Shown here piece by piece: positions 2,192 through 29,715 of a DNA stretch of 57,491 bases; within the stretch, counting starts at the first letter, position 1, and every line of letters starts with the position of its first letter. Source of the stretch: a virus; the IMG/VR virus record IMGVR_UViG_3300018081_000005; one strand, 5' to 3'. The notes below the pieces were generated by a model that did no database searches, was not told the origin of the DNA, and was given only the letters and a program-made list of their open reading frames with translations. The position numbers and the translations under genes are program-made.

Positions 2192-2203
2192 ATCATTCCT
2201 TCC

Positions 2204-2240
2204 AATGAGGAGTGGGGCGGAGTGGCCGCCCCACCTCATT
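2204..2240 (-). terminator. GC-rich interrupted hairpin after the beta-helix gene
   Basis: aatgagg-agt-ggggcgg agtgg ccgcccc-a-cctcatt gives 7+7 bp arms with a small bulge. No U-tract follows, so terminator function is uncertain. Confidence 0.4.
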
Positions 2241-2255
2241 CCTATATGGTCGTGG

Positions 2256-3350: not shown

Positions 3351-3434
3351 TACATCTCCTTGTATCGGGGGATTGATCCGGGCCACTCCCGGTGCTATCA
3401 AAGCTATACTGCGACGCAGTTATGGCGCTAGCAA

Positions 3435-5211: not shown

Positions 5212-5217
5212 ATCCGG

Positions 5218-5793: not shown

Positions 5794-5794
5794 C

Positions 5795-10048: not shown

Positions 10049-10178
10049 CCCCTCTCAAGATGGTAATACGTGGCCGCCAGAACGGCCGGAACCAGAGATA
10101 GAACTCCCAACGCCTGGCACGAATGCGTAGCGTCCAGGAGGTCGTCAGGGCCCGGTCGTTACAGACGTCGATCTTCAC
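10035..10178 (-). CDS. Unlisted 47-aa Trp/Arg/Phe-rich ORF (VKIDVCNDRALTTSWTLRIRARRWEFYLWFRPFWRPRITILRGDDVA)
   Basis: GTG start overlaps the MazG-like stop (GTGA), a coupling used repeatedly in this genome. Third-position G/C is about 74% by hand count. It fills an otherwise empty 126-nt gap. Confidence 0.3.
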   Translation of the reverse strand: MKIDVCNDRALTTSWTLRIRARRWEFYLWFRPFWRPRITILRGDDVA

Positions 10179-10711
10179 GATCGCTTGCCGCCGTGGCGGT
10201 ATTGGCGGGTCTCGTTGTAGGCCATCTTGTCCGCCAGCGCGTGTGCGATATCGATACCATGGAACCCGCAGATATCCAAAACTCGAATGATGATGTCCGC
10301 GAGTTCGGACGGGATACCTTCCGGCTTGAAATGGCCGATCATGTTGGGCAGGTTCCGGAGTAGCTCCGGCGTTAGCTCCACCCATTCGGGGTCATGGTCC
10401 GGCAGCCCTACCGGCTCGGCCTCGCGGTAGCCCCAAGCGGTAGAGTTGCGAAGCATGAGCTTCCCGTTGACGCCTACCTTGAACCATTCGCCCGACAGCG
10501 TGTCCTTAACGGACCAATGATGCTCATTGAATCCGCGCCCGTCACGCCACTCCTCCTGCGCCTCCGAAGCCTCAGTCACGACGTTCATGAGCATTCCGTC
10601 GAACGGGCGCTCAGCTCCGCCGTAGAATCCAAGCCGGACGTTACGCTCGTGAATGACCCGTGCTAAGTCATTCAAACTGCCTAGGAAATAGGCATCTGCA
10701 ACGCTAGTCAC
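10175..10711 (-). CDS. MazG-like all-alpha nucleoside triphosphate pyrophosphohydrolase
   Basis: Motifs VVTEASEAQEEWR, PSELADIIIRVLD and KMAYNETR..RHGGK fit the MazG/NTP-PPase pattern. Confidence 0.7.
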   Translation of the reverse strand: MTSVADAYFLGSLNDLARVIHERNVRLGFYGGAERPFDGMLMNVVTEASEAQEEWRDGRGFNEHHWSVKDTLSGEWFKVGVNGKLMLRNSTAWGYREAEPVGLPDHDPEWVELTPELLRNLPNMIGHFKPEGIPSELADIIIRVLDICGFHGIDIAHALADKMAYNETRQYRHGGKRS

Positions 10712-12216: not shown

Positions 12217-12773
12217 CCCAGAGGCGTGAACTTGAGGATCCAATTCCCCTGAGTGTTACTGACCTTCACCATGGTTACATCCTTGAGATGAACGACGGTG
12301 CTCCCGGTCAACTTGGTCTCAAAGTTGTCGGAGCAGTCATTGATACTCTCGAATGTACCGGAACCTTCGCTGCCATCCGCCTTGAGGAAGTGGACGATCC
12401 CGCACCAACTGCCGAATGAGTATTCAACATTGAATGCGCCGATGAGAGTAACGCTCACCGGTCCGACCGCATTACCCTTCCCCTTGACGGTCACCGGCGT
12501 CGGGGCCGGTACCGTTGGCGGCTTGGCGCCCACAGTAACCTGGGACGGGTAGAAGTTGGTCGGCCAATCGGAGGTAGTAGCCGTTGGATGTTGAACGGTA
12601 GCGTTGCCAACCAACGCCGCCCCGACCACACACAACGTGACGACGAACAAAGCCGCCAAGATAACTGTGATCCAGTTCCTGGTCTTGCGGTCCACCGGTT
12701 CATCCTTTCTTGGTTTGCGCGGCTGCGCTTTGGTGTGAGTCCCATGCCGTTCATCGCCGTCGTACATCACCAT
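12213..12773 (-). CDS. Single-pass membrane-anchored protein with extracytoplasmic beta-rich domain
   Basis: ORF 12213-12836 trimmed to ATG 12773 (TAATG coupling to thyX). Basic N-terminus, TM segment WITVILAALFVVTLCVVGAALVG, then a Pro/Thr stretch and a Cys-containing domain. Confidence 0.55.
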   Translation of the reverse strand: MVMYDGDERHGTHTKAQPRKPRKDEPVDRKTRNWITVILAALFVVTLCVVGAALVGNATVQHPTATTSDWPTNFYPSQVTVGAKPPTVPAPTPVTVKGKGNAVGPVSVTLIGAFNVEYSFGSWCGIVHFLKADGSEGSGTFESINDCSDNFETKLTGSTVVHLKDVTMVKVSNTQGNWILKFTPLG

Positions 12774-13936
12774 TACTTTGCTCCAATCCGGAGGCGCGGC
12801 GAAGCAACGAACACGCGGTTGGATTCCTTGGCCCAAGGGAAGCTACACGCCAACTCGACGTTCTCCCACCCCTGGAAGGTACATACGTGCTCGGTAGGAA
12901 CGAATGGGGCGCCCGGCTGCGAAGTATCCTGGTATCCACCCGGCTTCGATTTCTCGCAGGAGATCTTGATGAACTCCGCGAGATCTGGCGTGTCGTGAAC
13001 GATGAGCGCCCGCATAGCCCGCATGCATTCCACCATCTCCCGGAGGAACATTGAGCAGCCACGGTATGCGTAGACCGCGATGAACTCACGGATCGTGTAC
13101 TCGCACTGGATGTAGTTGACGGTCCCTTCGGGGAGGATGTAGCGCGCATCCTCATAAGGGACTCCGACGTCACACGCGGCAGCATAAGCGCCCCAAGATG
13201 CCTTGTAGGCATCCAGCCATTTGGTACGGACTTCCCAACCTGCGCGCCAGACGGTTTCGGGCATACGGACTTCCGGCCGGTCTCCGTACCAGGTAGACCG
13301 TTGACTCTGCTGATGGAATCCTGCGCGGCGGCTGCGGACCAGTTGATGCGTCAGAACCCGAGAGGCGCCCCAGACCTCAAAGACAACAGTCTGCGACTCC
13401 AGCGCGGCCTGGAGTCCGCCCTTAAACATCTCCTTCCAGTCCTCATCCGCGATTGGATGACGGTCGGAGTAGGTAGGGCTTTGGGTCGGACGCGGACGCC
13501 CAATGGTAGCTTGGGTTCCGGACGCGACGACCTGAAATAGGCTGTCCATTTCGAGGCCCTGCATCAGCCGGACTTCGAGCCCGTCCACCCCAACCTGTAC
13601 GGTCCCCGTATCGAAGGGCGAGACGTGCGCGCCGGTGTTCTTCGCGTGATTGTTGAAAGCCGTTTGGGCCACATTCGCGAGATCGTCGTATCCGCCCTGG
13701 TGCGCGGAGAACATCGGACCGTCCATTCCGCCGTACGGCCGGCTGAGCCTATGCTTCAGCAACCAGTCTGTCATTCTCCCGTCTCCAAATTCGAATTGAT
13801 CCAGCTTCCGCCGCAGCGCTTCGCGCGTTCCTTGGCGGCTTCGGCGAACATGCTTAGGACTACAAGCGTACCGGTCCCCATCCAGAAGACCAGGAAGGCC
13901 AAAAGCCATTGGTTCACGGGGTTCCCTCTCCAACAT
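12773..13936 (-). CDS. thyX: Divergent flavin-dependent thymidylate synthase (ThyX family) with N-terminal extension
   Basis: ASRVLTHQLVRSRRAGFHQQSQRS aligns with the ThyX signature S-R-x-x-T-H-E-L-I-R-H-R-x-x-S-x-x-Q-x-S-Q-R-Y. ARYILPEGTVNY...REFIAVYAYR aligns with the second conserved block. Start uncertain (13909, 13936 or 14038). Confidence 0.75.
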   Translation of the reverse strand: MLEREPREPMAFGLPGLLDGDRYACSPKHVRRSRQGTREALRRKLDQFEFGDGRMTDWLLKHRLSRPYGGMDGPMFSAHQGGYDDLANVAQTAFNNHAKNTGAHVSPFDTGTVQVGVDGLEVRLMQGLEMDSLFQVVASGTQATIGRPRPTQSPTYSDRHPIADEDWKEMFKGGLQAALESQTVVFEVWGASRVLTHQLVRSRRAGFHQQSQRSTWYGDRPEVRMPETVWRAGWEVRTKWLDAYKASWGAYAAACDVGVPYEDARYILPEGTVNYIQCEYTIREFIAVYAYRGCSMFLREMVECMRAMRALIVHDTPDLAEFIKISCEKSKPGGYQDTSQPGAPFVPTEHVCTFQGWENVELACSFPWAKESNRVFVASPRLRIGAK

Positions 13937-14210
13937 ACGGGCAATCAGGGTCGACGCAATGTTGCTGTAGATGTGCGAGCAATCGCCCGATTGAAGCCGC
14001 CTGGCGGGAAACACGGCCATCGGCATAGGCGGACACACCCCAAGCTTTTATGCCGCCAGTAATCACCATCCGGTCGGAACTCAGGCTGCAAGGGTCGCGA
14101 ACTACAATCGAGTAAAGGACATTCTCGTCCTTCACCTCCCGTTGGATCGTGAGCAATTCGCCCGCCAAGAATGGGACCAACAACTTTACGTCGCCCTTTG
14201 GTTTAGTCAT
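13914..14210 (-). CDS. Hypothetical protein
   Basis: ORF track (98 aa). RBS AGAGAGGGAA + 5 nt upstream of ATG 14210. The C-terminal third overlaps possible thyX starts, so the boundary is uncertain. Confidence 0.45.
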   Translation of the reverse strand: MTKPKGDVKLLVPFLAGELLTIQREVKDENVLYSIVVRDPCSLSSDRMVITGGIKAWGVSAYADGRVSRQAASIGRLLAHLQQHCVDPDCPYVGEGTP

Positions 14211-14571: not shown

Positions 14572-16836
14572 TTAGTCATTAGGATCAATGGGGACTAACC
14601 ATTTGGTCTGGACTGAGATCCCGAATGCCGCCACCTTGTCGCTCTTGCGGCCCCGAACCAGGATCATGTCTCGCCCAACCACTATGCCATCTATCCGTCC
14701 TTTGAGGCGTGGGAAGTCATATCGATTGATACGGACGTACACATCCTCATCGCCATCATCTACGCATCGGAGGACAACGCTCGTCTTGAGGTCCGGCCGC
14801 TTCATATCCCGCAGGATGTCCTTGACCTCGGTCCCATAGCGGGCTCGTTTGTTCTCTACATAGTCCTGGTAGTTGCGCTCCAAAACAAATCCTAGGAACA
14901 CCACTTCCAATTCGCTAACGTTTAGCAGTTCATCGCTCACATGCGTAGGCTTAGGCAAGCCGGCTTCGGGCAACCATTCTCGAACGCGCCCCATATCCTC
15001 TTCCAGGCGGCGAAGCCCGAACGGATCGTCCACATTGACTAATGGCCGCATCTTGTCCAGGATCTTAGGACCAATCCCCGATACCGTAAGCAATTCCTCC
15101 ACCTGAGTGAATCCGCCGCGCTCCGCCTCCGCCGCCGCTATCTTGGCGGCTACTACCGGCCCAACTCCGGGTAGGGTCTCGTATCCCGCCACGAGCTCGC
15201 CTTTACGCGGAGACGACCAACCGATGGCGCTTTCGCCTAGGGTGACTCCCCGGACCCGAACCTTATGCCGTTCAGCATCCCTTACCAAAATGGGACGTTG
15301 TGCGTCCGGCGTCCGCTCCAGCTTGATCTGATAGAACTCAGTGGTGTAGTGTTGCTTGAACCATTGGCACCAGTATCCGATGATACTGTACGAAAGCGAG
15401 TGACTATATACGAACGCATACGAGGCCGAGGTAACAACGCGCTCCCAAACCTTGGCGGCTACCTCTCTTGAGACCCCGTTGAGCTTCATAGCCGTAGTGA
15501 TGAAGTCTTCCGAGGAAGCGTTGAACTGAGCCTCGCCTAGTTTCTGACTGATGATCCGCCGAATATCATGTACCCGCCCAATGGGCAGGCCACCGAATTC
15601 CCCGAGCGCATGCAACACCTGTTCCTGATAGATGATCTGACCTCTTGTGGGCGCCGCGATCCGATCAACAATGGGATGGATCTTCGGAATCTCCATCAGG
15701 CCGCGCTTGATGTTGATGAACTCGGTGGTAGTCCCAGAGAACAACGGACCTGGCCGCGAGAGCGCGTTGACGTGAATGAGCTCGTAAATGTCTTCGGGCT
15801 TGACCTCACGGCAGACCAGGCGGGTAGCTCTCCCTTCGAATTGGAAAACGCCAACCACATCTGCGCGGACAAACGCATCAAATGTCAGCTTGTCGTTCAA
15901 CGGGAGCGCGTACAACTCCTCCAGACTCATTCCAGTCAGCCTTAGCATCTCCGCTATCTCGCCCATGGTGGTGAGACCCAAGACATCGATCTTCATCAGT
16001 CCTAGGTACTCAGCATCCTTCTTGTCCACCGAGACCGCTGCAATCGGACGGCCATGAACATCACGCGAGTACATAGCGCAAACGTCTGCGATCGGAGTAT
16101 CGGAGATCACCAGCCCGGCCGCGTGGGTACTCATCCCACGGTAGTTGCCTTCAAGCGCAATAGCCATACGTAGCGCGGGATACTCCGCCAGGACCGCCGC
16201 CGCTAGCGGGAAGGAATCAAAGGTGTCCACAAGAGAGGCGTCCGCGCGAGAGTCGCCGCCGGACCGCTCAATGATCATCCCCTTGACAGTCTCCAGTGGA
16301 CCATATGGGATGCTGTAGACCCGCCCAACGTCCGTGAGGCTATTCTTCCCCTTGTACTTGGTGAAGGTCCCGATGTTAGCGACACAGTCCGGCCCCCAAC
16401 GATTGACCGCATAAGTCCGGACCTCGTGCCGCCGGACGTCATCAAAGTCAACGTCAATGTCCGGTAGGTCAACACGGGTAGGGTCAATGAACCGGGTGAA
16501 GTCTGTAAGCGGGAACTGGAGCGGATCGGGTTCGGTAATGCGAAGTAGGTAACACACCAAACTGGCCGCTGAGCTACCGCGCCCAGGGCCCACCGCGATG
16601 CCTTGGTCCTTAGCCCAGCGAACGATATCGGACACCAATAGGAAGTAGCTTACGAAGTCCTTGGAGATGATGAGTTCCATCTCTCGGTGCATTTGCTCCA
16701 GATACTCCGCTTGGCGGGTCTTGAGGTTGCGATTCCCTTGCGCGAACCGGTATCGCCATCCTTCCCGAAGCCAAGCCCACAGGATTTCTACCGGTTCAAC
16801 GTTCAAGGTCTTCGGTCGGACCATTGTCATTACCAT
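14572..16836 (-). CDS. dnaE: DNA polymerase III alpha (DnaE-type) catalytic core, lacking the PHP domain
   Basis: FVSYFLLVSDIVRWAKDQGIAVGPGRGSSAASLVCYLLRITEPDP...DLPDIDVDFDD is the DnaE palm signature. HhH segment PGVGPVVAAKI...VSGIGPKILDKM. C-terminal OB-like region. Confidence 0.9.
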   Translation of the reverse strand: MVMTMVRPKTLNVEPVEILWAWLREGWRYRFAQGNRNLKTRQAEYLEQMHREMELIISKDFVSYFLLVSDIVRWAKDQGIAVGPGRGSSAASLVCYLLRITEPDPLQFPLTDFTRFIDPTRVDLPDIDVDFDDVRRHEVRTYAVNRWGPDCVANIGTFTKYKGKNSLTDVGRVYSIPYGPLETVKGMIIERSGGDSRADASLVDTFDSFPLAAAVLAEYPALRMAIALEGNYRGMSTHAAGLVISDTPIADVCAMYSRDVHGRPIAAVSVDKKDAEYLGLMKIDVLGLTTMGEIAEMLRLTGMSLEELYALPLNDKLTFDAFVRADVVGVFQFEGRATRLVCREVKPEDIYELIHVNALSRPGPLFSGTTTEFINIKRGLMEIPKIHPIVDRIAAPTRGQIIYQEQVLHALGEFGGLPIGRVHDIRRIISQKLGEAQFNASSEDFITTAMKLNGVSREVAAKVWERVVTSASYAFVYSHSLSYSIIGYWCQWFKQHYTTEFYQIKLERTPDAQRPILVRDAERHKVRVRGVTLGESAIGWSSPRKGELVAGYETLPGVGPVVAAKIAAAEAERGGFTQVEELLTVSGIGPKILDKMRPLVNVDDPFGLRRLEEDMGRVREWLPEAGLPKPTHVSDELLNVSELEVVFLGFVLERNYQDYVENKRARYGTEVKDILRDMKRPDLKTSVVLRCVDDGDEDVYVRINRYDFPRLKGRIDGIVVGRDMILVRGRKSDKVAAFGISVQTKWLVPIDPND

Positions 16837-17738
16837 ACTAGGTCGGCCTCCGTTCCCTTATAGCGGAACCGTTCTGCTTTGGGCAACGTCACGTTACAAC
16901 GCTCCGCTACCTCAGCGGTATTCGCCATGATCTGCTGCGCTTGTTTGCGCTTGTAGCCTATCCCGCGTAACCGCTCTAATACATACTCATCATTAATAGG
17001 TGGGTAATCCGGGACGTCATATTCCCAGCTTGACAGCTGCTTGGCTATAGTATTGTTCCCGCGACCGGCAGCGTGGAGAAGCGCCCGCATCTCGCCTTGC
17101 CCCGGCCTAATGGTATGGACGTCGAACGTGACGACCAACGGGATCCTATGTAGCTCCGAAATCCGCCGGTATGCCTCCGCTATCAGCTTGGCGCGCGGGA
17201 ACTCCGGGAATGCTTGGACCTCAAGATAGTATCGATCACCGAACAGCGCACGGAAGTTGGTCGCTACCCGCTGGGCCTTCTTGAAGCTAGCATCCTCTTC
17301 AGGGATGTCCTTCCCGCCCAAGAGCGTACAAGCTAGGAGGCTGTCGCTACATCCGCTCAAGCAGATCAGGCCTTCATCATGATCCGCGAGCATCTGGCCG
17401 CTCACCGTTGGGTAGTAATAGAACCCCTCCGCCCAAGAGCGGGTAACGATCCTATTGAGGTTAGCGTAACCAGTCTGGTCGGCCGCCAATAGCGTCAAGT
17501 GGAACTTGCGCTGGGAATCTGACTGCGGGTGAGTGTATGCCTCCAAACCGAAGATTGGTTTGATCCCAGCCTTCTGTGCGGCTTTCTCCAATCCTACATG
17601 GGAACTGACGTTGCCGTGCTCCGTAGCCGCAATGGCGGGTAACTCCAGTTCAACAGCGCGCTCAACGTGCTGAGCCGGCGTCCCGAACCCATCCATGTAG
17701 CTGAACGTCGTATGGTGGTGGAGGCTAGGCGTCAGCAT
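16830..17738 (-). CDS. dnaE: PHP-domain protein = N-terminal domain of DnaE, encoded as a separate ORF
   Basis: LHHHTTFSYMDGFGTP...AATEHGNVSSHV...PIFGLEAY is the DnaE PHP motif set. It ends in TAA, overlapping the ATG of the core ORF (ATGGTAA), in the -1 frame relationship. Confidence 0.85.
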   Translation of the reverse strand: MLTPSLHHHTTFSYMDGFGTPAQHVERAVELELPAIAATEHGNVSSHVGLEKAAQKAGIKPIFGLEAYTHPQSDSQRKFHLTLLAADQTGYANLNRIVTRSWAEGFYYYPTVSGQMLADHDEGLICLSGCSDSLLACTLLGGKDIPEEDASFKKAQRVATNFRALFGDRYYLEVQAFPEFPRAKLIAEAYRRISELHRIPLVVTFDVHTIRPGQGEMRALLHAAGRGNNTIAKQLSSWEYDVPDYPPINDEYVLERLRGIGYKRKQAQQIMANTAEVAERCNVTLPKAERFRYKGTEADLVW

Positions 17739-17858: not shown

Positions 17859-18188
17859 TCACGGATGCTCCCATACCAGGCCGCCGGTGAAATCGCCTTT
17901 AGCCGCCACTTTAGCGCTGATGTACGATTCTATCTGAGGCCATTGGATTCCCGTTCGGACCATCAAGAATGTGACGGCGACCTCAACTACGTCGCAACCC
18001 TCTGCAATGATATCCGTATTCAGCCCTAGCTCGTGGGCCTCTACTAGCTCGCTCAGTTCCTCCAGGATCTTCTTGAGAAGTAGGGTCTCGTGCTCCGTCC
18101 GGTCCCTTACCGGCCGAAAGCTATCGGAGCTACAGGGAACGAATCCCTCCGCCTCACGGATCCTGTCGCGTACTATCTTGGTTGCCAT
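17859..18188 (-). CDS. Small MazG/PRA-PH-like nucleotide pyrophosphohydrolase
   Basis: N-terminal KIVRDRIRE and the helical acidic segment KKILEELSELVEA...EGCDVVEV resemble the house-cleaning NTP-PPase family. Confidence 0.6.
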   Translation of the reverse strand: MATKIVRDRIREAEGFVPCSSDSFRPVRDRTEHETLLLKKILEELSELVEAHELGLNTDIIAEGCDVVEVAVTFLMVRTGIQWPQIESYISAKVAAKGDFTGGLVWEHP

Positions 18189-18669
18189 CCGTTCCCTCCC
18201 AGACTAGATCGATACCCGCCCAAGCGGCATACTTCAAACAATCCTCACACGGAACGGATGAGGTATAGATCGTCACGCCTAACGGTCGGGCCCAACCTTC
18301 AAGGCTACGCGCTCTCTGCGAATGGCGGAAGTTCTCTGCCGCGTTTAACTCCGCATGGAGATACACGCAATTGGAGTACCCTACACCATGGGGCTGCTCT
18401 TCGGCCGAGAGGAATCCGCGCGGGCAACCCCCACCCATACAAGTAGCCGCGTTCTCGGAGCGCTCCATCCCGTTCCATCCGAGCTCGCGTTGCCGGCCGT
18501 TGGATACCAGGACCGCACCCACGTTCCGCCGCACGCAGGTCCCCATCATATCGCCGACTATATGGGCGATACGTAAGTACATGAAATGCGAGGAGTCAAG
18601 GAAGACTATCGGATTGGAGTGGGATATCACATCAGGTTCAAGCTGATCCACTTTCCCATCTCCTCCCAT
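18154..18669 (-). CDS. dCMP (deoxycytidylate) deaminase
   Basis: Zinc motifs HAELNAAEN and PCEDCLKYAAWAGI. VGAVLV core. ORF 18154-18771 trimmed; a GTG at 18630 overlapping the UDG stop (GTGA) is an alternative start. Confidence 0.85.
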   Translation of the reverse strand: MGGDGKVDQLEPDVISHSNPIVFLDSSHFMYLRIAHIVGDMMGTCVRRNVGAVLVSNGRQRELGWNGMERSENAATCMGGGCPRGFLSAEEQPHGVGYSNCVYLHAELNAAENFRHSQRARSLEGWARPLGVTIYTSSVPCEDCLKYAAWAGIDLVWEGTDGNQDSTRQDP

Positions 18670-19247
18670 TGACGCTCCATTATGGTGCGCGCTCGCGGTC
18701 CATCTCGGAGACCCCAAGCTGGATGGTATTGAATCCAGACGAAGGTCTCGCCGTCCTGCATCGCCAACCAATCACCAGGCTTAGAACGGATCTCCACGGG
18801 AGTAAGCGCGCCGCGCGCCGTTGCACCTACAGCTACAATGAGAGTCGGCCGGCCAATCGCCTTCCACTCCTCTCTGAGAGCTTGTTGCCCGTGGAGGATC
18901 TCAGCGATAGTTGGGGTCCGGTTCCCAGGCGGCCGATACTTCACCACATTGGTAATGAAGGAGTTCGCAGAGAATGTCCCCATATCGTGCTCTTCGCCTT
19001 CACGGGTATCCTCCGCATACAGACCGGCCAGCGCCATCAGTTGGGTCAACACCCGCCCGCTAGGACCGCAGAATGGACGCCGTTTGAGGTTCTCGGTCGC
19101 CCCTGGTGCCTCCCCAACAATCATGGCTAACGGATCGTCAGAGTTGCCTCGTCCAGGGACCAAGACGATGCCCGGTTGCCGAAGATGGTTCCAACCATCA
19201 TCCTCCCGGATAGCCTCGTAAACATCAGATAGATCCACGACGATCAA
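18627..19247 (-). CDS. Uracil-DNA glycosylase, family 4 type
   Basis: GEAPGATENLKRRPFCGPSG, FITNVVKYRPPGNRTP and QYHPAWGLR match the UDG family 4 motifs. Confidence 0.8.
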   Translation of the reverse strand: MIVVDLSDVYEAIREDDGWNHLRQPGIVLVPGRGNSDDPLAMIVGEAPGATENLKRRPFCGPSGRVLTQLMALAGLYAEDTREGEEHDMGTFSANSFITNVVKYRPPGNRTPTIAEILHGQQALREEWKAIGRPTLIVAVGATARGALTPVEIRSKPGDWLAMQDGETFVWIQYHPAWGLRDGPRARTIMERQWEEMGKWISLNLM

Positions 19248-19632
19248 CCTTCTGCTGGATCATATCGATTGTCAGGAATGCGTGACCGATGAGATCCCTA
19301 CAGATCTCGTCCGGTCCCTCTTGCGTCAGTTCCTCGCCGTCCCAGAGCGCGCGGCGTAGCGGTCCGATCTTCCGCCAAATATCAGCGAACTGGCCGGCCG
19401 GACCGAGGACGTTGGCGTTGGCGTCTCCGTAGTGAAGACTCTTCTCGACAAATCGTTGGGCGAACGCCGGAATGATTTCCATTATGATCCGACGAGCTTG
19501 CGGGCCCAATTGATCCCAAGCCTCCGGACTGATCCCGAGGCTGAGGCATATCACATCCGACCTCTCGACCGACCCGTCCCCATCCATGGCTAGTTGGATT
19601 GCATCTCGTGCATTCATTTCAGCGACCTCCAT
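19225..19632 (-). CDS. Helical protein resembling DUF1599 / nucleotide-modification-associated domain 1
   Basis: Pattern HYGDANANVLGPAGQFADIWRKIGPLRRAL...EGPDEICRDLIGHAFLTIDMI resembles the DYG...D-x-x-x-K-x-x-R...D-x-x-N-Y layout I recall for DUF1599. From memory only. Confidence 0.4.
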   Translation of the reverse strand: MEVAEMNARDAIQLAMDGDGSVERSDVICLSLGISPEAWDQLGPQARRIIMEIIPAFAQRFVEKSLHYGDANANVLGPAGQFADIWRKIGPLRRALWDGEELTQEGPDEICRDLIGHAFLTIDMIQQKVDRRGSI

Positions 19633-20341
19633 TTACGGTAATGATGTCTCCCGTCCATCCTTTGACGTCGGATAGGAGAACATCGCAAGCAACAGATGCA
19701 ACCTCGGTCGTAGATAGGTGGCGACCGATTGGGGACGAGGATAGCTCATACTTCGTCGCCCAGGAGCGCGCCCAGCCCCGTATTTCGGGCACACGCTCAT
19801 CTACGTACTCGGTCATAGCGGTCCCGACAACCTTCCCCGGCGCGAGACCGTTGACCCGCCAGCCCTCCGCCGCTAGCTCGCGCGAGGCTACCCGAATCAC
19901 CATATCCAACGCAGCCTTGCTAGCGCAGTAGGCCATGGAAGTCCGCATTGGACGTACGGCGGCATCCGAAGTAATCGCCAGGACCGAGTACGGCTTACTG
20001 GTAAGCTGTAGTCCTTTGAGAACGTTCATGAAGCCCCAGACGTTGGTCGCCATGATGCGGTCGAAGGACTTCCGCTCAACCGCCCAACTCCAGTCAAGCT
20101 CATTGACCCCAACGGAATACACCACGGAGTCCGGGCTGCACTCGTCCAAGAGTAGGCCCAACTCCTCAATGGCATACTCGTCGCGCGTCACGTCTAGGAC
20201 TTCCAGCGGGGGCGCAAATGCCAAATGCCCTAGATCCGTTAGCCGCGTACAGATTGCTTCCCCGATCCCATTTGGAGAGGTCCCTCCAAGGACCAGGACG
20301 CTCCGGCTTACAGCCCCGTTATCTGCAGTTCCTTTATCCAT
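19619..20341 (-). CDS. Short-chain dehydrogenase/reductase (SDR)
   Basis: Rossmann motif VLVLGGTSPNGIGEAI and catalytic YCASKAAL (YxxxK). About 240 aa, classical SDR length. Confidence 0.8.
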   Translation of the reverse strand: MDKGTADNGAVSRSVLVLGGTSPNGIGEAICTRLTDLGHLAFAPPLEVLDVTRDEYAIEELGLLLDECSPDSVVYSVGVNELDWSWAVERKSFDRIMATNVWGFMNVLKGLQLTSKPYSVLAITSDAAVRPMRTSMAYCASKAALDMVIRVASRELAAEGWRVNGLAPGKVVGTAMTEYVDERVPEIRGWARSWATKYELSSSPIGRHLSTTEVASVACDVLLSDVKGWTGDIITVNGGR

Positions 20342-20982
20342 TTCCCTCTCTCTTCCTTCCAGGATTGCACAGCATCTAGTAGGACTTCCCTTGCGCGGAT
20401 GAGAGTCTCGACTGACTCAGCAGCTTGGATAGGATTAGCTCCCGCCACCCGATTGTAAGGCTGGTCTCGCAGGACCACGAACGCCTTGGGGAACAAACGC
20501 TGGGCCTCTGCGTATAGCTCCGGTAAGTCCTCCAATACGCCTGCTACCCGCCAACCGGCTTGACGTCTCAGCTCGCGGTACTTGTCGTCTCCATATAGAA
20601 TGGCGTCATACTTGATCTTGTTACGTAACAACCATTCCCTGGTATCGGGGTCGATGCTATCTAGCCGCAAGTAGGGGCGGGTGGTGCAGATCCAAACCTC
20701 CGCACCCTTCCGGCGGATATCGGTTGCTAACTCCGCTGCACCCGGATAACAAGGCATGAACCGCTTAAGCCCGCCTTGACGATAGGCCAGCTTGCATTCA
20801 CGATACTGCCGCAATTGAACGCCCATGAACTTATGGAGCCGCATTCCCGGATTGATCTCATCAGACTTAGGCATGGGCTTGCCTAGCCATTGCTCCGCGA
20901 ACCAAAGGAAGTGGCCGTGGTAGTCGCCTAGCGTCCCGTCGATATCCAACGCCACTATAGGTTTGGTTCGCATAGGGATCAC
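20308..20982 (-). CDS. HAD-superfamily phosphatase (nucleotidase-like)
   Basis: Motif I ALDIDGTLGD, motif II ICTTRP and a C-terminal Asp region (GDDKY..). Substrate unknown. Confidence 0.65.
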   Translation of the reverse strand: MIPMRTKPIVALDIDGTLGDYHGHFLWFAEQWLGKPMPKSDEINPGMRLHKFMGVQLRQYRECKLAYRQGGLKRFMPCYPGAAELATDIRRKGAEVWICTTRPYLRLDSIDPDTREWLLRNKIKYDAILYGDDKYRELRRQAGWRVAGVLEDLPELYAEAQRLFPKAFVVLRDQPYNRVAGANPIQAAESVETLIRAREVLLDAVQSWKEERGKWIKELQITGL

Positions 20983-21809
20983 CGCATCGATTCGAGTACG
21001 GTACGAGTCTTTGTATACGCCTGATGACTGTACTCACCCTTGGTCCAAGTGCCATACCGGCCAACCCGCAAGACCGGCGAGTCGCCAAGTCGGAGCCAAC
21101 AACTACACAAAGTCCGGATCGGCTTGTTGACGCGCGCTATCCCTTTGATAGGCGGCCGAGGACCATCCGGCCACTCCGCCGTACGATGGCCGAAGACATT
21201 GCTAGCCCGATACCAGCGCGGGCTGTCCTCCCCGTTGACGATGACCGTCCAGGGCTCAACCGTAACCGAGCATTCAAGCCCCAACTCCGGCGCGTCCCCT
21301 TGCGCCCAAACACTTTGGACCAGGAATTGGTGTCCGCCTACGCAGGCTGACGCTAGCGGGATACCCCAGACAACGAGATCGGCGCCGATGATCCTTCCTT
21401 GGCTATCGAGCCAAGCCGGCGTGATCTCGGTTGGTTGGATGAGTCCTTGGAAGCGCTCCCAAGCGTTCTCGTATGTAGCACGGATATCCCAGGCGTCATG
21501 ATGGGGAGCGAGCGCGTCTGGAGATACCGTGACCGATGACCCAGACCCGTATACCTTACGGCGATAGCCGTCAACGGTCCCCTTAAGGATGTAGGAGACC
21601 GTTTCGCGAGCCATTGGAGGAATGGTCAAACCGGGGATCGGTTCGTGAAGATACTGCGCTCCATGCAATGGTGAACGCTCGCCCCTTGCATAGATCTGAA
21701 CCACATTCCCGGTGTCGTATGCCGCCTGGGCCGCGAAGAGTCCCGCCGGACCGGACCCGAAGATCGCAACCATTAATGGACGCTTTGGCTTCGGCTTCCA
21801 GAAGCTCAT
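20979..21809 (-). CDS. FAD/NAD(P)-binding oxidoreductase-like protein
   Basis: N-terminal dinucleotide-binding fingerprint VAIFGSGPAGLFAAQAA. The rest is unrecognised. Only one Rossmann motif seen in 276 aa. Confidence 0.6.
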   Translation of the reverse strand: MSFWKPKPKRPLMVAIFGSGPAGLFAAQAAYDTGNVVQIYARGERSPLHGAQYLHEPIPGLTIPPMARETVSYILKGTVDGYRRKVYGSGSSVTVSPDALAPHHDAWDIRATYENAWERFQGLIQPTEITPAWLDSQGRIIGADLVVWGIPLASACVGGHQFLVQSVWAQGDAPELGLECSVTVEPWTVIVNGEDSPRWYRASNVFGHRTAEWPDGPRPPIKGIARVNKPIRTLCSCWLRLGDSPVLRVGRYGTWTKGEYSHQAYTKTRTVLESMR

Positions 21810-23375: not shown

Positions 23376-24233
23376 TTACTTGCGCGCCTTGCGCGGTTTG
23401 TCGCCCGACTTACTTGGACTGTTCATCAGCGCGATGAGTTCGGGCATCATCACGCCTTCAGCCCCGGTGTTGTTGAGATCGCGCATGGTCGCCCAGTTCC
23501 CCAACATAGTGGTTTGGTCCTTGGCAAAGTACCGCGTCTCATTGACGGGATCCACGTACTGTTGGAAGAGAATACGCCGAGTTTGGAAAGCCTCTCCATT
23601 CTTCTCTATGATTCGCGGCGCTATGTACCAAACACCGTGCATCAGCCCGGATATGTAGTTGCTGACCTCGTAACCCTTTCCCTGGATCCCGGGGTAGACA
23701 AGCGTCTCCCCATTCTCATCCTCCGGCCGCATAGCGTGACCGGTGAACAAGACGTTACAAGGAAGGTCAATGAACCGCGCAGACCAGGACTTCATGAAGT
23801 TCTGAGTGTTGAAGTAGTCCGGCTTGTCGGGTAGGTTGCGGTGCGCGCGCTTGGCGGGATTGGCATCAAACGCTTCCGCCGCGTAGTTGAGAAGGAACTT
23901 GACCCCCATTGTAGTGAAACCATCCACTACAATCCAGTCGTACTTGTTGGCCCCGCCGCTCTCAAGAGAGAGTATGGCGGCCGAAGCGGTAGCGGTATCC
24001 GGGATCAGCCGGCACTTGGCTCCAGGCGCCAATCCGCCCATCCTTGCAGCCGTGATATAGCCGGGCTCGCCGGCCAGGAACAGTACCCGCCCCGGGAGGC
24101 TGCCGGCCAGAACGGTCTTGCCCGAACCGGAGTCCCCATATAGCAGGATGTTCCAATACTCGGTAGAGCCGTCCAGGTCGAACATTCCATCCTCGAATTC
24201 CCGGATGGACATCCCCTTACGCTCGGTAGCCAT
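23376..24233 (-). CDS. AAA_24 / Sak4-like RecA-fold ATPase
   Basis: ORF 23376-24404 trimmed to ATG 24233 (TAATG coupling). Walker A LLYGDSGSGKT, Walker B WIVVDGFT. Confidence 0.75.
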   Translation of the reverse strand: MATERKGMSIREFEDGMFDLDGSTEYWNILLYGDSGSGKTVLAGSLPGRVLFLAGEPGYITAARMGGLAPGAKCRLIPDTATASAAILSLESGGANKYDWIVVDGFTTMGVKFLLNYAAEAFDANPAKRAHRNLPDKPDYFNTQNFMKSWSARFIDLPCNVLFTGHAMRPEDENGETLVYPGIQGKGYEVSNYISGLMHGVWYIAPRIIEKNGEAFQTRRILFQQYVDPVNETRYFAKDQTTMLGNWATMRDLNNTGAEGVMMPELIALMNSPSKSGDKPRKARK

Positions 24234-24712
24234 TACACCTCCCAAGCTACGGGGATGCTCTTGCCGACGAGGTAGGCGCGTAGGTTCCGGCGCCGTGCTG
24301 GACCCAGCCCGGGAATCTCCCGGATGGCGGATGTCGGGAGTTGGCTCAACTGCCAAACGTTCCGGATCCCCGGAACACTCGCCACCCATTTGACTTCCGG
24401 GCACTCCACCAGGAGCCTAGTCACTTTAACCTTACTCAAATAGCCGCGCATTGCTAGCCGCTCCTCGCTAGCGCGCTGAGCTTCGCTCTTGGTGAGTTTC
24501 GCCCCGCCCAAGCGTGCATGGGGCCTAGCCGCGCGGTCCGGGACCTTGGTACTTTGCGCCATAACTCGCCTTACCCTTCGTGCTTCACCGGCCGAACGGC
24601 GCCTATCCCGGCCTGCTTTGGACTGGGGCCTAACCCCCTTTGTTGAGGCTTTCTTAGCCGTGACCTGTTCCATCACCGCATTGGATACAGGGTCCGCAAG
24701 TTTGTCTTCCAT
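24233..24712 (-). CDS. Basic protein with C-terminal helix-hairpin-helix (RNAP alpha-CTD-like) DNA-binding domain
   Basis: SAIREIPGLGPARRRNLRAYL is HhH-like. Arg/Lys-rich N-terminal half. Confidence 0.45.
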   Translation of the reverse strand: MEDKLADPVSNAVMEQVTAKKASTKGVRPQSKAGRDRRRSAGEARRVRRVMAQSTKVPDRAARPHARLGGAKLTKSEAQRASEERLAMRGYLSKVKVTRLLVECPEVKWVASVPGIRNVWQLSQLPTSAIREIPGLGPARRRNLRAYLVGKSIPVAWEV

Positions 24713-24768: not shown

Positions 24769-25965
24769 CTATTCGTCAGTCGACTTCCGGTGATCCGCGT
24801 ACGGATCCTGGACCTTGTACGCGATATCCCGTAGGGATTCCCAATCGCCGCCACGTTCCTGCAACTCGCACATGTCGTAGAATTCGCACCAGGAACATTC
24901 ACGGGTGGCGGTCTTGGTGGGAATCAATAGTCCGTCCCGGAGTAGCTCCATCTGGAGCGCGTCTTGTTGCGCCCGAAGGAGTTGCGATCTACGCTCCGCA
25001 CTAGTCCTATGAACCGCGTGGCGAAGGAACAATGGCGGCGGCTGGACCTTACTTCTGTCGCCAAGAACGAACATAGATTCGCTAACGGCTAATTCGGACA
25101 ACCTCACCAGGGTACATTTCTCTAGCGGCTTACCGTCTATCTGATGTATTCCGCGCGCCTCAAAAGCCTCTATGTAGCTCTGCTTGGTAGGCTTGTTGGT
25201 CTTGTAGCCCTCCGCGTCCAACGGACGTTCGTCTGGGAGTGCTTTGCGTAGGAAGTTGTACATGATACCCGCCAAGACTTCGTCCTCTGGGATCAGCCCA
25301 TCGCGCCGTAGCTCTGCGGTCGCGGTCGCCCAGTAGGTCCCGGCTTGGTTGTCCATAGCCAAATGGCGGGTCTGGACGGCCTTAGCCGTCTTGTGCTCCC
25401 CCAACCAGTACCGCGTCGTCTCGGTATCCAGGTACACAACGTCATACGTACCAACGAGTTCAGCCATGACCGTGCTGGGGTCTACGGAGGCGGCGTCCCA
25501 GAAGTTAGAAGCGTTGGCGGGCCATGGGATCCTGAGGTTGAACGTCCTTTCGGGACTAACGATCGACCAGGTCTCGTCCCGCCCGTACAGCTTCCGGTAG
25601 CCCTCCAGCATGGTTATGCCTAGCTCGCGTGCATCTACATACTTGGCCACGGTATCGTCATCGGGGTCATCGGTTCTGACATACGCCATCTCCATCTCGC
25701 TGGCGTACTTGTCCCAAGTCTCCGCCGGTTCCGGGCCACGCTTGACTCCGGGGCCGCAGTACCAGAGCGCTAACGCTAGGTGGACGCCGGTCCCGAACCA
25801 CAAAGGGGTGGATGGGATCCCCTTTGGTACCAACCCTTCCCGGTTACGCCACCACCAAGCCGCTTGACACCGTTGGAACGAGACCCGCTCGCTAGCGCGG
25901 ATTCGCGGCGGAGGTATCGTCTCGATTGGGAGTCCGGTTGCGAAGTCTCTCTTCACCTTAGCCAT
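24769..25965 (-). CDS. PD-(D/E)xK exonuclease, Cas4/RecB-like with 4-Cys cluster
   Basis: YDVVYLD...LGEHKTAK (D...ExK). One N-terminal Cys (FQRCQAAW) plus C-terminal CSWCEFYDMC (C-x2-C-x5-C), as in Cas4/AddB Fe-S nucleases. Confidence 0.75.
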   Translation of the reverse strand: MAKVKRDFATGLPIETIPPPRIRASERVSFQRCQAAWWWRNREGLVPKGIPSTPLWFGTGVHLALALWYCGPGVKRGPEPAETWDKYASEMEMAYVRTDDPDDDTVAKYVDARELGITMLEGYRKLYGRDETWSIVSPERTFNLRIPWPANASNFWDAASVDPSTVMAELVGTYDVVYLDTETTRYWLGEHKTAKAVQTRHLAMDNQAGTYWATATAELRRDGLIPEDEVLAGIMYNFLRKALPDERPLDAEGYKTNKPTKQSYIEAFEARGIHQIDGKPLEKCTLVRLSELAVSESMFVLGDRSKVQPPPLFLRHAVHRTSAERRSQLLRAQQDALQMELLRDGLLIPTKTATRECSWCEFYDMCELQERGGDWESLRDIAYKVQDPYADHRKSTDE

Positions 25966-26812: not shown

Positions 26813-28921
26813 TCACAACTCCCGGGTACGTCTGAGTACTGCTCGCGCGTACTCTACTCCCCGCCTACCATCAAGCAGACGTTTGCTGTTCTCATCGCGC
26901 TCCGCATTCGTAAGCGCGATTCCAAGGTCCACCGTCTCCAAACTCCGTAGGTAGTGATAGAACACCGGCCTTGGATTTGATACGCGGTGGATCCGGTCTT
27001 CGGCTTGCTCTTGGTCATCCGGGACCCAGGTTTCATCCAGGAAGACCATCACATCCGCCTGGTCCAACGTAATGGCCACGCCGCCCGTCTTGGTCTGGAG
27101 CAACATCAGATGGGCTCCGCTACCCACCGGCCGGTTCATGGCCGCTATGGCCTCCTCACGCCTGCGCCCCGACTGCTCTCCCGTTAGGAGGACAGGCATT
27201 ACGTCTGAGCGGATCGGAGTTCGTGAGTTGACGCTCAACGCCTGTAACCGGGCGGGTAGCTCCCGCGCGAACAGGTTCAGCATCTCCGTGAATTGGGACA
27301 CTATCACCACCTTGGTAGATGGTGCATCCGGAAACCCCAACTCATCCAATAGTTGCACTAAGTATTCGAACTTGTTGGAGGGTAGCTCCGGCTGGAAGTG
27401 TTGGACCGTCTTAGTATGCGTATGGGGGCCAGGCTGCTCGGGGCAATCCGGACCGGAATCGTCGCAATCCCAAGTCTTCGTCTGAGGGATCATCCTACCG
27501 GAAGCGCCGGCAAACTGCTTCAGCCGCGTCAACTCCGCTAGGATCCCAATGGCCTCAACCCTTGAACCGTCCGCTAGATCGGCCGCACTAGTCTCCAACA
27601 TCTCTTTGTAGGCGCGCCCCTGAGCCCCTTCCATAGGCAACCAAACGCCATGGGGAGAGTCTTCATCGCCCGTTACGGCCGGCGTCCCGACATAAGTCTT
27701 GGGCGGCAAGTCCGGCGCCACCTCAGCTTTAGTCCGCCGGAGGACATAGCGGTCTAGGCTCCGCCAAAGCCCTTCCTCGTCAATGAGCTTGCCGATAACG
27801 TGGTTGCTGTAGCCATTGGAAGATAGCTCCCAGAACAGCTCAGTCCAGTTCCAGAATGAAGGGAATGCCTTGGGGGCAAGCCAATTCAATTGGCCCCATA
27901 GGAGGTGCGGCCTACCTCGGGTAGGCGTACCCGTCATGGCGATTCGTAGCCCGTCCGTCCGTAGGCGGAGCATCTCCATACCTTGGCGCGTTTGGGTAGG
28001 CGTGCCGGTCAAGCGGAGGAGGGAACGGTCGGACTCATCTACGATTACAGCGCCCCATTCACGCGCAAACAGTTGTGGGAACTCATGCTCCACGCGGTCC
28101 GGCTTCCGTAGCTCCGGATCATGCCACGCCAGACGCTTCCGTTCATCCTTGCACTTGAGTTCAACCTTGCCAGCCTTCCGAGGGGTCTCCTGGCCACATA
28201 CGCCACAGACCCAGTACACTCGGGTACGAACCGCCTCAGGATGCACTATCAACCACGTAGCGGCCAAATCAAGGCTGTTATCGAGTGCGTCTAGAACGGC
28301 GTCGCGCCTAGCGCGCTGCTTAGTGGTGATCTTGTTGATCCTCTGGTCGCCCTCCGGAAGCGTAACGATGGTCTGGCCGTCCATCCAGCGCGGGATCTCA
28401 CGGGCCCAAACCGGTACCACGGAAGTCTTTGGCGTCACAACGAGGTACGGTCCGGCGGTCTGGCTCTCTACCACGCCGCCAATGGCCTCCAGAGTCTTCC
28501 CCAATCCCGGCTGGTCCGCTACCAGACAACCCGCCCCGTTGGCCATAGCCTCCGCCACGAAGCGCGCGCCCACCCGTTGGTACTTACGAGCCTCCATTGC
28601 CTTCGCTAGCCTAGGCGCGTATGCTGGCACCCAAGCCAACTCAGCGTCCCGCGCAGCGGCAAGGATCTTCATCTTCGCCGCTTTTGCCTGTTCCGCTTTG
28701 GCCCAAGTCCAAAGGCGCGGCCCAATGATCAACTCGGAACCAAACTCCTCACGGAGGCGCCGGCAGACCGGCATACTCAACGGTAGGCTCCAGTAGGGCT
28801 TGTTGTATTGGCCTTGATTGAGATTGGCGCCAGGGATCCGCTCTTTGAGACCCGCCAACGGGGACGAGGAACTCAGGTAAATGCGCCGGCCATTCTTGGC
28901 CAAATCCGCCTTAACGGTCAC
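26813..28921 (-). CDS. SNF2-family helicase/translocase
   Basis: LVADQPGLGKTLEAIG (motif I), VIVDESDRS (motif II), helicase-C block TKTGGVAITLDQADVMVFLDETWVPDDQEQAEDRIHR. Start set to the GTG overlapping the upstream stop (GTGA). Confidence 0.85.
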   Translation of the reverse strand: MTVKADLAKNGRRIYLSSSSPLAGLKERIPGANLNQGQYNKPYWSLPLSMPVCRRLREEFGSELIIGPRLWTWAKAEQAKAAKMKILAAARDAELAWVPAYAPRLAKAMEARKYQRVGARFVAEAMANGAGCLVADQPGLGKTLEAIGGVVESQTAGPYLVVTPKTSVVPVWAREIPRWMDGQTIVTLPEGDQRINKITTKQRARRDAVLDALDNSLDLAATWLIVHPEAVRTRVYWVCGVCGQETPRKAGKVELKCKDERKRLAWHDPELRKPDRVEHEFPQLFAREWGAVIVDESDRSLLRLTGTPTQTRQGMEMLRLRTDGLRIAMTGTPTRGRPHLLWGQLNWLAPKAFPSFWNWTELFWELSSNGYSNHVIGKLIDEEGLWRSLDRYVLRRTKAEVAPDLPPKTYVGTPAVTGDEDSPHGVWLPMEGAQGRAYKEMLETSAADLADGSRVEAIGILAELTRLKQFAGASGRMIPQTKTWDCDDSGPDCPEQPGPHTHTKTVQHFQPELPSNKFEYLVQLLDELGFPDAPSTKVVIVSQFTEMLNLFARELPARLQALSVNSRTPIRSDVMPVLLTGEQSGRRREEAIAAMNRPVGSGAHLMLLQTKTGGVAITLDQADVMVFLDETWVPDDQEQAEDRIHRVSNPRPVFYHYLRSLETVDLGIALTNAERDENSKRLLDGRRGVEYARAVLRRTREL

Positions 28922-29715
28922 GACGCCACCGCATTCTTGGCTAGGTGGGGATAGCGCGCGTAGCAGGTTGGGCCCATCCCGCGCTTGACGCTCTCTGGGT
29001 TGGTAAGGAAGTGGCCGAACACACACCAACCGGTATTCTTGGTCAGCTCCTGAACTTCTTCCGCCGGCACCAATTCCGACTCCAGGATCTGGTAGATCAT
29101 TGAGCCCACGTAGGTAAGCGTGGGGCGCTTCTTAGCGCCATCCTTGGGGAACTCCACGAGCTTGGCGTATAGCCGGCCGGAGTCCTTCCCGAGTAGGCAC
29201 TGGAAGAGTGCGCCGCTCTGGTAGATCTGGCCGTGTACCACTACGGTACGGCTGAGCCGGTAGAGTCCTTCCTCGGTGGCGGTAGCCGGCTTATACCATG
29301 TCTCTACTGAAGCCTTCCGGCCCGCCTTGGCGCGCTCCTCGCGGTAGGTCTCCGTGCGGTCGCCCTCCGCTTCCATCCGCTGCATATCGCGCTCGTCCTG
29401 CTCGGTGAAAGCCCTTGCGGACGCACCCTTCAACGGGCATTGGAACGAATGGATAAGAATGGCCCCATCCGTAGCGGGATCCCCTCCACAAGTACAAACA
29501 GGAGCGGTCTGCGCGCATTCGCGGACGGCTTGGACGCTAGGGTGAGTCTGGCCGCAGTGCCCGCAATTGATAGTCATGGTATCCGCCTCTGGCTCAAAGG
29601 AAACTCCGGGGCAACGCCGTATCCCGCGCTGGGGGTCCCACCATTCGTGGGCTTCGTGATTGCGCCTAACCGTCTCTGCGAAGTAGCGCCAATCGCGGCA
29701 CTTAACGATCCGCAT
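28918..29715 (-). CDS. Cys-rich protein with DUF6011-like C-terminus
   Basis: ORF trimmed to ATG 29715. NCGHCGQTHPS...CTCGG clusters. C-terminal GWCVFGHFLTNPESVKRGMGPTCYARY resembles the C-x-x-C-G-x-x-L-T-D-P-x-S-x-x-x-G-x-G-P-x-C motif I recall for DUF6011. Confidence 0.5.
   Translation of the reverse strand: MRIVKCRDWRYFAETVRRNHEAHEWWDPQRGIRRCPGVSFEPEADTMTINCGHCGQTHPSVQAVRECAQTAPVCTCGGDPATDGAILIHSFQCPLKGASARAFTEQDERDMQRMEAEGDRTETYREERAKAGRKASVETWYKPATATEEGLYRLSRTVVVHGQIYQSGALFQCLLGKDSGRLYAKLVEFPKDGAKKRPTLTYVGSMIYQILESELVPAEEVQELTKNTGWCVFGHFLTNPESVKRGMGPTCYARYPHLAKNAVAS

Follow-up and report, generated by a model that had tools for sequence, protein, structure and literature searches.

The window analysed here is the entire metagenomic virus contig IMGVR_UViG_3300018081_000005, a stretch of 57,491 bases with a G+C content of about 59% and with nearly all genes on the minus strand. 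At positions 17859–21809 it carries an island of seven successive minus-strand open reading frames (ORFs), with overlaps of 4–145 nt between neighbours. Starting from the highest coordinate, these encode a flavoprotein, a HAD phosphatase, a classical short-chain dehydrogenase/reductase (SDR), a DUF1599-like helical protein, a uracil-DNA glycosylase (UDG), a dCMP deaminase and a small MazG/HisE-like protein. A preliminary description of this DNA had delineated the same seven, mostly overlapping genes, and this layout holds. An atypical ThyX-like enzyme is encoded 7 kb downstream. Here we describe how the island divides into conserved core genes and lineage-specific add-ons, as well as the linkage of the core to the ThyX-like enzyme, and we consider a tentative reading of both as one system for thymidylate synthesis.

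Core and add-on genes of the island

The anchor of the conserved core is the flavoprotein (20979–21809, minus strand, 276 aa), which matches the 'oxidoreductase' family phrog_8720 at E 2.8e-70. Pfam detects merely an N-terminal GxGxxG motif, and a sequence search against the PDB matched just the N-terminal Rossmann motif. The AlphaFold model of the protein (pLDDT 96.1) was compared with known structures by Foldseek, yielding DAAO, UGM, VioD and MHPCO at E ~1e-7 and TM ~0.5, with a probability of 1.0 for DAAO, UGM and VioD; the modest TM value is due to a chain some 90 residues shorter. StyA and indole monooxygenase were further fold neighbours. The FAD-type signature is present as an N-terminal GxGxxG beta-alpha-beta unit and a GDAP motif, with G18, G20 and GDAP invariant. 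Judged by the model, the protein has an FAD-type fold of the DAAO/UGM/PHBH type and is predicted to bind FAD. The residues Cys156, His160, Cys235 and Cys237, which are invariant in 51 homologues and are not explained by an FAD fold, may constitute a metal or redox-active site.

The flavoprotein family comprises 923 homologues, mostly from metagenomes. A search of 185,579 species genomes returned a single match, located on a metagenome-assembled contig, and the family is essentially confined to phages. Homologues occur in 126 isolated phages of Gordonia, Microbacterium, Mycobacterium, Streptomyces, Arthrobacter and Nocardia; among the phage matches listed, identity is 31–41% and the annotation reads 'oxidoreductase'.

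The start of the HAD phosphatase gene (20308–20982, minus strand, 224 aa) overlaps the flavoprotein stop by 4 nt. Its best PHROG is phrog_415, a 'polynucleotide kinase' family (E 1e-18). The protein appears to be of the NT5C, or 5'(3')-deoxyribonucleotidase, type: the window sequence itself scores 20.7 bits against NT5C (PF06941; E 4e-4), for a cutoff of 24.8 bits, and PF06941 is carried by 48 of the 120 listed homologues. HAD motifs I–IV are present, with D13, D15, T100, K134 and D152 invariant in 48 sequences, and some 80 residues are inserted between motifs I and II, an insert that we take to suggest a cap typical of small-molecule phosphatases. The sequence gave no useful match in the PDB; identity reaches up to 63% among the phage matches listed.

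The classical, 'FabG-like' SDR (19619–20341, minus strand, 240 aa) matches adh_short_C2 at E 8.4e-21 and phrog_3142 at E 5.6e-27 and contains the Gly-rich motif GGTSPNGIG and the catalytic YCASK of the YxxxK type. No specific NCBIfam family comes anywhere near its cutoff with this protein; pteridine reductase is one of many weak matches. PHROGs places the family under 'moron, auxiliary metabolic gene'.

The fourth protein (19225–19632, minus strand, 135 aa; phrog_10271, E 1.6e-17) belongs to a family of 1159 representative clusters and has its conserved stretch at residues 45–130. The window protein has no Pfam match, including to DUF1599 (nucleotide modification associated domain 1, PF07659). 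Among its relatives, 1 of 31 and 7 of 141 sequences match DUF1599 at E 0.003–0.006 (best 0.003), and DUF1599 is the sole Pfam family that recurs among them. The likeness to DUF1599 noted in the preliminary description is thus kept as a remote, sub-threshold and weakly supported sequence resemblance. The AlphaFold model (pLDDT 90.5) is wholly helical. Foldseek found nothing significant for it in the PDB (all E > 1); the weak top matches include the MazG-type AF_0060, DCTPP1 and HisE and give a hint only. Sequence searches against the PDB gave no useful match either, and in longer proteins with this helical domain the additional parts have neither a Pfam domain nor a match to other window proteins.

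The remaining three genes of the island are add-ons. The UDG (18627–19247, minus strand, 206 aa) matches PF03167 at E 5.2e-23, and its best PDB match is the family-4 enzyme TM0511 (E 5.7e-15), to which motif A, GEAPG, and motif B, HPA, can be aligned. In UDG family 4, four cysteines bind a 4Fe-4S cluster. These have no counterpart in the window protein: the two TM0511 cysteines that lie within the aligned block (ICNVVKC) are replaced by Thr and Tyr, and there is no N-terminal CxxC. The dCMP deaminase, listed at 18154–18771 on the minus strand, matches dCMP_cyt_deam_1 (PF00383) at E 2.6e-10 and phrog_174 at E 4.2e-21, with the zinc motifs HAE and PCxxC and the point where conservation sets in seen in the alignment; translation probably begins downstream of the listed TTG, near 18669 or 18585. 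The small, all-alpha MazG/HisE-like candidate (17859–18188, minus strand, 109 aa; phrog_5164, E 6.7e-7) remains just below the PRA-PH cutoff in Pfam (E 6.5e-4, 20.5 bits for a cutoff of 21.3) and matches TIGR03188 at E 1e-3. It had no sequence match in the PDB. Acidic motifs of the EExxE / ExxD type are represented by LEELSELVEA and AEGCDVVEV and are kept in two relatives. Outside the island, a second MazG-like pyrophosphatase is encoded at 10175–10711 on the minus strand (phrog_3301, E 1.2e-21).

The family calls made in the preliminary description fared differently. Family or fold matches together with motifs bear out the dCMP deaminase, the SDR, the HAD phosphatase and the FAD oxidoreductase, and the second MazG-like enzyme is indeed a pyrophosphatase by its PHROG. 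The family-4 assignment of the UDG stands by its Pfam domain, its closest structure and its motifs, except for the replaced Fe-S cysteines, while the PRA-PH/MazG-like call for the small protein is weakly supported, with visible acidic motifs and a profile score below cutoff. An HhH-glycosylase-like protein had been proposed at 30238–30876; neither Pfam nor PHROGs gave a match for this ORF at the thresholds applied, and the call is not supported.

To compare the island between phages, we derived iterative profiles from the window proteins and ran them against related loci. About 200 loci were surveyed overall, all belonging to one broad phage group with DnaE-type replication. Those with a flavoprotein homologue numbered 85, namely six isolated phages and 79 IMG/VR contigs, and gene frequencies were counted in the 69 of them that also hold DnaE. 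The DUF1599-like protein was present in 63 of these 69 loci (91%), the HAD phosphatase in 57 (83%) and the SDR in 33 (48%), followed by the UDG in 23 (33%), the second pyrophosphatase in 13, the dCMP deaminase in five (7%) and the small MazG in two (3%). The island therefore consists of two layers, a core of flavoprotein, HAD phosphatase and DUF1599-like protein, joined by the SDR in about half of the loci, and lineage-specific add-ons comprising the UDG, the deaminase and the small MazG. The idea of a single conserved operon or pathway of seven genes is ruled out because their conservation over the 69 loci is so uneven. The neighbourhood conservation that the preliminary description had suggested checking applies to the core, including the SDR at its 48%, and not to the add-ons.

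The smallest arrangement consists of the flavoprotein, the DUF1599-like protein and DnaE. In isolated phages the order is RecA-like, oxidoreductase, phosphatase, FabG-like or hypothetical genes and then DnaE and the ThyX-like gene. The slot between flavoprotein and DnaE can hold further genes in the relatives: a dCTP deaminase/dUTPase-like gene and a weak methyltransferase domain, in 10 loci each, as well as DUF6378 and HNH endonucleases. The dCTP deaminase/dUTPase-like gene, for example at 13610–14152 in locus L023 (PF22769, E 1.5e-26) and in nine more loci, replaces the dCMP deaminase and is an alternative route to dUMP at the same position.

The ThyX-like enzyme and its linkage to the core

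The atypical ThyX-like enzyme is encoded at 12773–13936 on the minus strand, in an ORF that can be extended to 14038. It matches Thy1 at E 6.6e-21 and phrog_35637 at E 1.3e-100. A profile of its clade with 42 members matched ThyX structures in the PDB at E 3.9e-22 over the catalytic core. Alignment columns were anchored by the PDB mutants 4gtf (H53A) and 8rep (Y91F), and T. maritima numbering is used throughout. The dUMP-binding residues Gln75, Arg78, Arg80, Ser88, Arg90 and Arg174 are invariant in the 42 sequences. Three further positions have lost the canonical residue in every member: His53 has given way to another residue, Leu in 40 of 42 sequences; His79, the central His of the RHR motif, is replaced by Ser, Gln, Thr, Asn or Glu; and Tyr91 is replaced by Phe, Ala or Ser. 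In addition, Glu86 is Gln in 42/42. The signature RHR-x7-8-S-x-R-Y consequently reads R[SQTNE]R-x7-S-x-R-[FAS] in all 42 sequences, with RSR...SQRS in the window. The atypical character that the preliminary description ascribed to this enzyme is thus confirmed, down to the catalytic residues involved.

In canonical ThyX, Tyr91 and Ser88 are strictly conserved and critical, and His53 stacks on FADH- and on folate (PMC11940539). Flavin oxidation is 1000-fold slower in Tyr91 mutants, as cited in the same work (PMC11940539).

The ThyX-like protein is, moreover, extended by about 170 aa at its N-terminus. Its C-terminal extension contains about four conserved cysteines (C294, C327 and C352 in the window, plus one more), between which some relatives (L002, L007, L022, L029 and L064) have an insert with two CxxCxGxG motifs. 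This arrangement suggests a zinc or iron-sulfur site without an equivalent in canonical ThyX.

Linkage between this enzyme and the core was found from whichever gene the loci were picked. Where the sequence of flavoprotein and DnaE loci continues for 3.5 kb or more past DnaE, the ThyX-like gene is present in 31/31. The 12 loci without it are all short of sequence beyond DnaE, and one of them, from phage Ajin, has the gene further on. When loci were picked by the DUF1599-like protein, the flavoprotein was just upstream in 57 of 58, the exception ending at a contig edge. When they were picked by the ThyX-like gene with at least 9 kb upstream, the flavoprotein was present in 58 and the HAD phosphatase in 55 of 60.

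The linkage also outlasts rearrangement. In 11 of the 64 loci with both a ThyX-like gene and a flavoprotein, the ThyX-like gene lies directly against a core gene, often overlapping it. The orders observed are flavoprotein-ThyX (L209, L213–L216), flavoprotein-HAD-ThyX (L206, L208), flavoprotein-HAD-SDR-ThyX (L204) and flavoprotein-HAD-DUF1599-like-ThyX (L222, L225, L226), to which HAD-SDR-DUF1599-like-ThyX can be added from L220, where the flavoprotein is cut off. Because the association survives such rearrangement, it argues for a shared function beyond shared ancestry alone, and we consider a functional link of the core genes to the ThyX-like enzyme to be likely, and considerably firmer than the roles proposed below for the single genes. 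The preliminary description had set the SDR, HAD and FAD genes apart from thymidylate metabolism. This is contradicted by their co-occurrence with the ThyX-like gene under three different locus-picking genes and by their contiguity with it in about a dozen phages.

One contig, IMGVR_UViG_3300046533_000294 (129,757 bp), contains two non-identical flavoprotein-HAD-SDR...ThyX-like blocks (L169, L173) about 65 kb apart; it looks like two related ~65 kb genomes joined in assembly.

A proposed multi-component thymidylate system and its rivals

Based on these observations, we suggest that the core and the ThyX-like enzyme form a multi-component flavin-dependent thymidylate system with extras for dUMP supply and uracil policing; we put the probability of this reading at about 0.45. 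The ThyX-like enzyme, having retained the dUMP site, would bind dUMP, while the residues with which canonical ThyX holds reduced flavin and folate and drives flavin oxidation are lost. The flavoprotein and the SDR would jointly deliver or regenerate reducing equivalents or a cofactor, the DUF1599-like helical protein would act as a nucleotide-binding accessory and the HAD phosphatase would trim the dUMP/dNMP pool. Among the extras, the dCMP deaminase would feed dUMP, the MazG-like enzymes would clear the pool of dUTP or of other dNTPs that are not wanted, and the UDG would excise uracil from DNA. The product would be canonical dTMP, made for a phage of 59% G+C in a host presumed to be higher in G+C. 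Besides the linkage and the residue pattern, this reading is favoured by the other occupants of the slot in relatives, which are suppliers of dUMP (the dCTP deaminase/dUTPase-like gene in 10 loci and the dCMP deaminase in five), by the NT5C family among the HAD homologues, by the FAD-type fold of the flavoprotein and by the thymidylate role independently given to a dUTPase-ThyX-DUF1599 block of Asgard viruses (bioRxiv 10.1101/2021.07.29.453957). The analysis shows the identities of the genes, their pattern of conservation, the linkage to the ThyX-like gene and the residue losses, whereas the roles given to the flavoprotein, the SDR, the phosphatase and the helical protein, as well as dTMP as the product, are inferred.

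Several points weigh against this proposal. One would not expect a 5'-deoxyribonucleotidase to share an operon with an enzyme that makes dTMP. In T. maritima ThyX, both Tyr91 and His53 are of importance to methyl transfer, and the ThyX-like enzyme, which has neither, may perform a different chemistry. Moreover, since the surveyed loci all come from one broad phage group with a DnaE-type replication module, the co-occurrence of core and ThyX-like genes is partly a matter of shared ancestry. To our knowledge, a role of a separate flavoprotein, SDR or DUF1599 protein in ThyX catalysis has nowhere been shown.

The base composition of palindromes bears on the product. Palindromes with T are avoided in the window, with observed/expected ratios of 0.68 for CATG and 0.69 for AATT, which speaks weakly against a protective modification of T. 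CCGCGG occurs once for 24 expected instances and ACGCGT once for 15, a deficit matched by 0.05% of non-palindromic 6-mers; this points to restriction of the SacII or MluI type having acted on the phage in the past. As CCGCGG, the most strongly avoided site, contains no T, the palindrome test is just weakly informative.

The loss of His53, His79 and Tyr91 throughout the ThyX-like clade, with Gln in place of Glu86, is also the reason to keep in mind that the core and the ThyX-like enzyme might instead yield a non-canonical, C5-modified pyrimidine nucleotide that replaces T or C in the phage DNA, for example a methylated dCMP, or a nucleotide with a hydroxymethyl group or another one-carbon adduct that is unreduced or oxidised. 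Mutation of Tyr91 cripples the methylation step in canonical ThyX (PMC11940539), and the extra conserved redox enzymes and the DUF1599-like domain would have a place in such a pathway, in which the NT5C-type nucleotidase and the two pyrophosphatases would clear the canonical competitor. The weak methyltransferase domain that occupies the same slot in 10 loci and an annotated glycosyltransferase near DnaE in phage Ajin point in the same direction. However, searches with Pfam and PHROGs of the tested ORFs in the non-structural half of the window (780–37362) found no ThyA-type hydroxymethylase, 5-hmdU DNA kinase, aGPT-type transferase or glycosyltransferase, in line with the preliminary description, which had recognised no kinase, glycosyltransferase or aGPT-type transferase with confidence. 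Nor was a radical-SAM or PLP enzyme found in the window, and we found no report of modified DNA for the isolated carrier phages in the open-access literature. The UDG and the dCMP or dCTP deaminases fit ordinary T synthesis, and the continued avoidance of T-containing palindromes argues, weakly, the same way. Altogether, we regard a C5-modified pyrimidine as unlikely, and it is likewise doubtful that actinobacterial phages of clusters D, DG, DV, EF, BN and AE and their hundreds of metagenomic relatives possess a novel multi-component flavin system that makes such a base for virion DNA in place of thymidylate. What remains of the modification pathway envisaged in the preliminary description is the anomaly itself, which is real; the redox and phosphatase genes belong with ThyX, and there is no positive sign of a modified pyrimidine.

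In the other readings the nucleotide itself is left untouched or the genes serve different ends. The flavoprotein, SDR, HAD phosphatase and pyrophosphatase could serve to produce or regenerate a cofactor that the ThyX-like enzyme uses, such as a reduced pterin, an alternative one-carbon carrier or free reduced flavin, in the manner of a two-component flavin system or a pteridine-reductase route. The consistent replacement of His53, the residue that stacks on folate and flavin, is compatible with this, as are the pteridine reductase among the many weak SDR matches and, among the fold neighbours of the flavoprotein, StyA and indole monooxygenase, both of which accept free reduced FAD. Yet no GTP cyclohydrolase or other gene of pterin or flavin biosynthesis was found, the family matches of the SDR are all far below cutoffs, and the HAD homologues fit the deoxyribonucleotidase family rather than sugar or pterin phosphatases, so that this possibility appears improbable. 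A role of the HAD protein as polynucleotide 3'-phosphatase, acting with the UDG in base excision and with neighbouring genes as a repair and end-processing set for recombination, unrelated to ThyX, could be argued from its best PHROG, the 'polynucleotide kinase' family, and from the neighbours of the island, which include a Sak4/RecA-like ATPase along with a Cas4-like exonuclease and a helicase. It is rendered highly improbable by the contiguity of HAD and ThyX-like genes in rearranged loci, by the NT5C domain in HAD homologues, by the ~80-residue insert between motifs I and II and by the presence of the UDG in merely a third of the loci. Finally, the preliminary description had named as its own refuter that the SDR, HAD and FAD genes might be host-metabolism morons without relation to DNA synthesis. 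The PHROGs category of the SDR family would agree with this. The constant placement of the genes, with the recombination genes on one side and DnaE on the other in about 200 loci, the co-directional and overlapping arrangement, the near absence of the flavoprotein family from cellular genomes and the adjacency to the ThyX-like gene in rearranged genomes leave it scarcely credible.

The replication module and comparison with known systems

The island is a nucleotide-metabolism block, as the preliminary description had it, and is part of the replication and recombination module in a genome of the actinophage siphovirus type. On the minus strand, the module begins with a helicase (26813–29029), followed by a Cas4-like exonuclease (24769–25965) and the Sak4/RecA-like ATPase (23376–24404) before the island. 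Behind the island follow the two halves of a DnaE-type DNA polymerase III alpha subunit, the PHP part (16830–17738, 302 aa; PHP E 4.7e-39) and the polymerase part (14572–16836, 754 aa; DNA_pol3_alpha E 5.6e-67), then the ThyX-like gene, the second pyrophosphatase and, last, a primase-polymerase (6700–9186). All of these genes lie on the minus strand. A near-identity DNA search among 50,697 phage records found no close relative of the island.

The two DnaE halves lie in different frames and overlap by 7 nt (16830–16836). They are also separate in Microbacterium phage Ajin, with a small gene in between, and in Arthrobacter phage Wollypog, with an HNH endonuclease in between; a conserved split is therefore likely, rather than an assembly error. 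At 780–6145 there are six successive minus-strand ORFs of 116–381 aa without a PHROG match, for which Pfam gives merely a weak beta-helix (2256–3401) and a weak 'beta flower' (3716–4624); these may be lineage-specific tail-fibre or host-recognition genes.

Canonical ThyX works alone and has been studied as a stand-alone flavoenzyme and antibiotic target. The canonical enzymes, such as T. maritima TM0449, M. tuberculosis Rv2754c and PBCV-1 A674R, share the catalytic core and the dUMP-binding residues with the ThyX-like enzyme, whereas the latter lacks His53, the RHR His and Tyr91, has Gln for Glu86, carries the N-terminal and the Cys-rich C-terminal extensions and is accompanied by a separate small flavoprotein. 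A parallel is found in a dUTPase-ThyX-DUF1599 block of Asgard archaeal viruses that was interpreted as serving thymidylate synthesis (bioRxiv 10.1101/2021.07.29.453957). Both systems combine a DUF1599-type helical protein with ThyX and a dUMP-supplying enzyme; in the phages, however, the helical protein is merely a remote DUF1599 relative, and the flavoprotein, the NT5C-type phosphatase and the SDR are added.

The hypermodification systems of phages ViI, M6, SP10 and PhiW-14 rely on a ThyA-type dUMP hydroxymethylase, a 5-hmdU DNA kinase, and aGPT-type, PLP or radical-SAM enzymes. Their thymidine hypermodification clusters resemble the window in having pyrimidine-pool genes near replication genes and in having pyrophosphatases (PMC8989533), but none of their hallmark enzymes was found in the window. 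With the NT5C 5'(3')-deoxyribonucleotidases the window HAD protein shares the core motifs, at its sub-cutoff score of 20.7 against 24.8 bits, and such an activity is predicted for it.

Homologues in cultured actinophages, including PLot gp61, Ajin gp55–57 and Xenia2 gp69, 70, 75 and 84, follow the same order from RecA-like to DnaE. The genome note on Xenia2 lists these families for clusters D, DG, DV, EF, BN and AE, and neither the phage records nor PMC11385102 go further than gene names as to function. Compared with the genes of these clusters, the window adds the UDG, the dCMP deaminase and the small MazG.

The individual families are already known, and hundreds of phage records carry names for the genes. 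Not described in the searchable open-access text are the division of the island into core and add-ons, the reciprocal, rearrangement-proof linkage between core and ThyX, and the clade-wide loss of His53, His79 and Tyr91. The clade is represented by at least 489 matching stretches in IMG/VR and by 126 isolated phages. Genes annotated as 'oxidoreductase', 'phosphatase' or 'hypothetical' and the DUF1599-type proteins hereby gain, for the first time, a testable functional context, and the existing cultured phages and hosts allow a rapid check of either outcome. With dTMP as the product, these phages would run flavin-dependent thymidylate synthesis in a novel manner; with any other product, a common group of easily grown phages of Mycobacterium, Gordonia, Microbacterium and Streptomyces would carry an undescribed DNA base.

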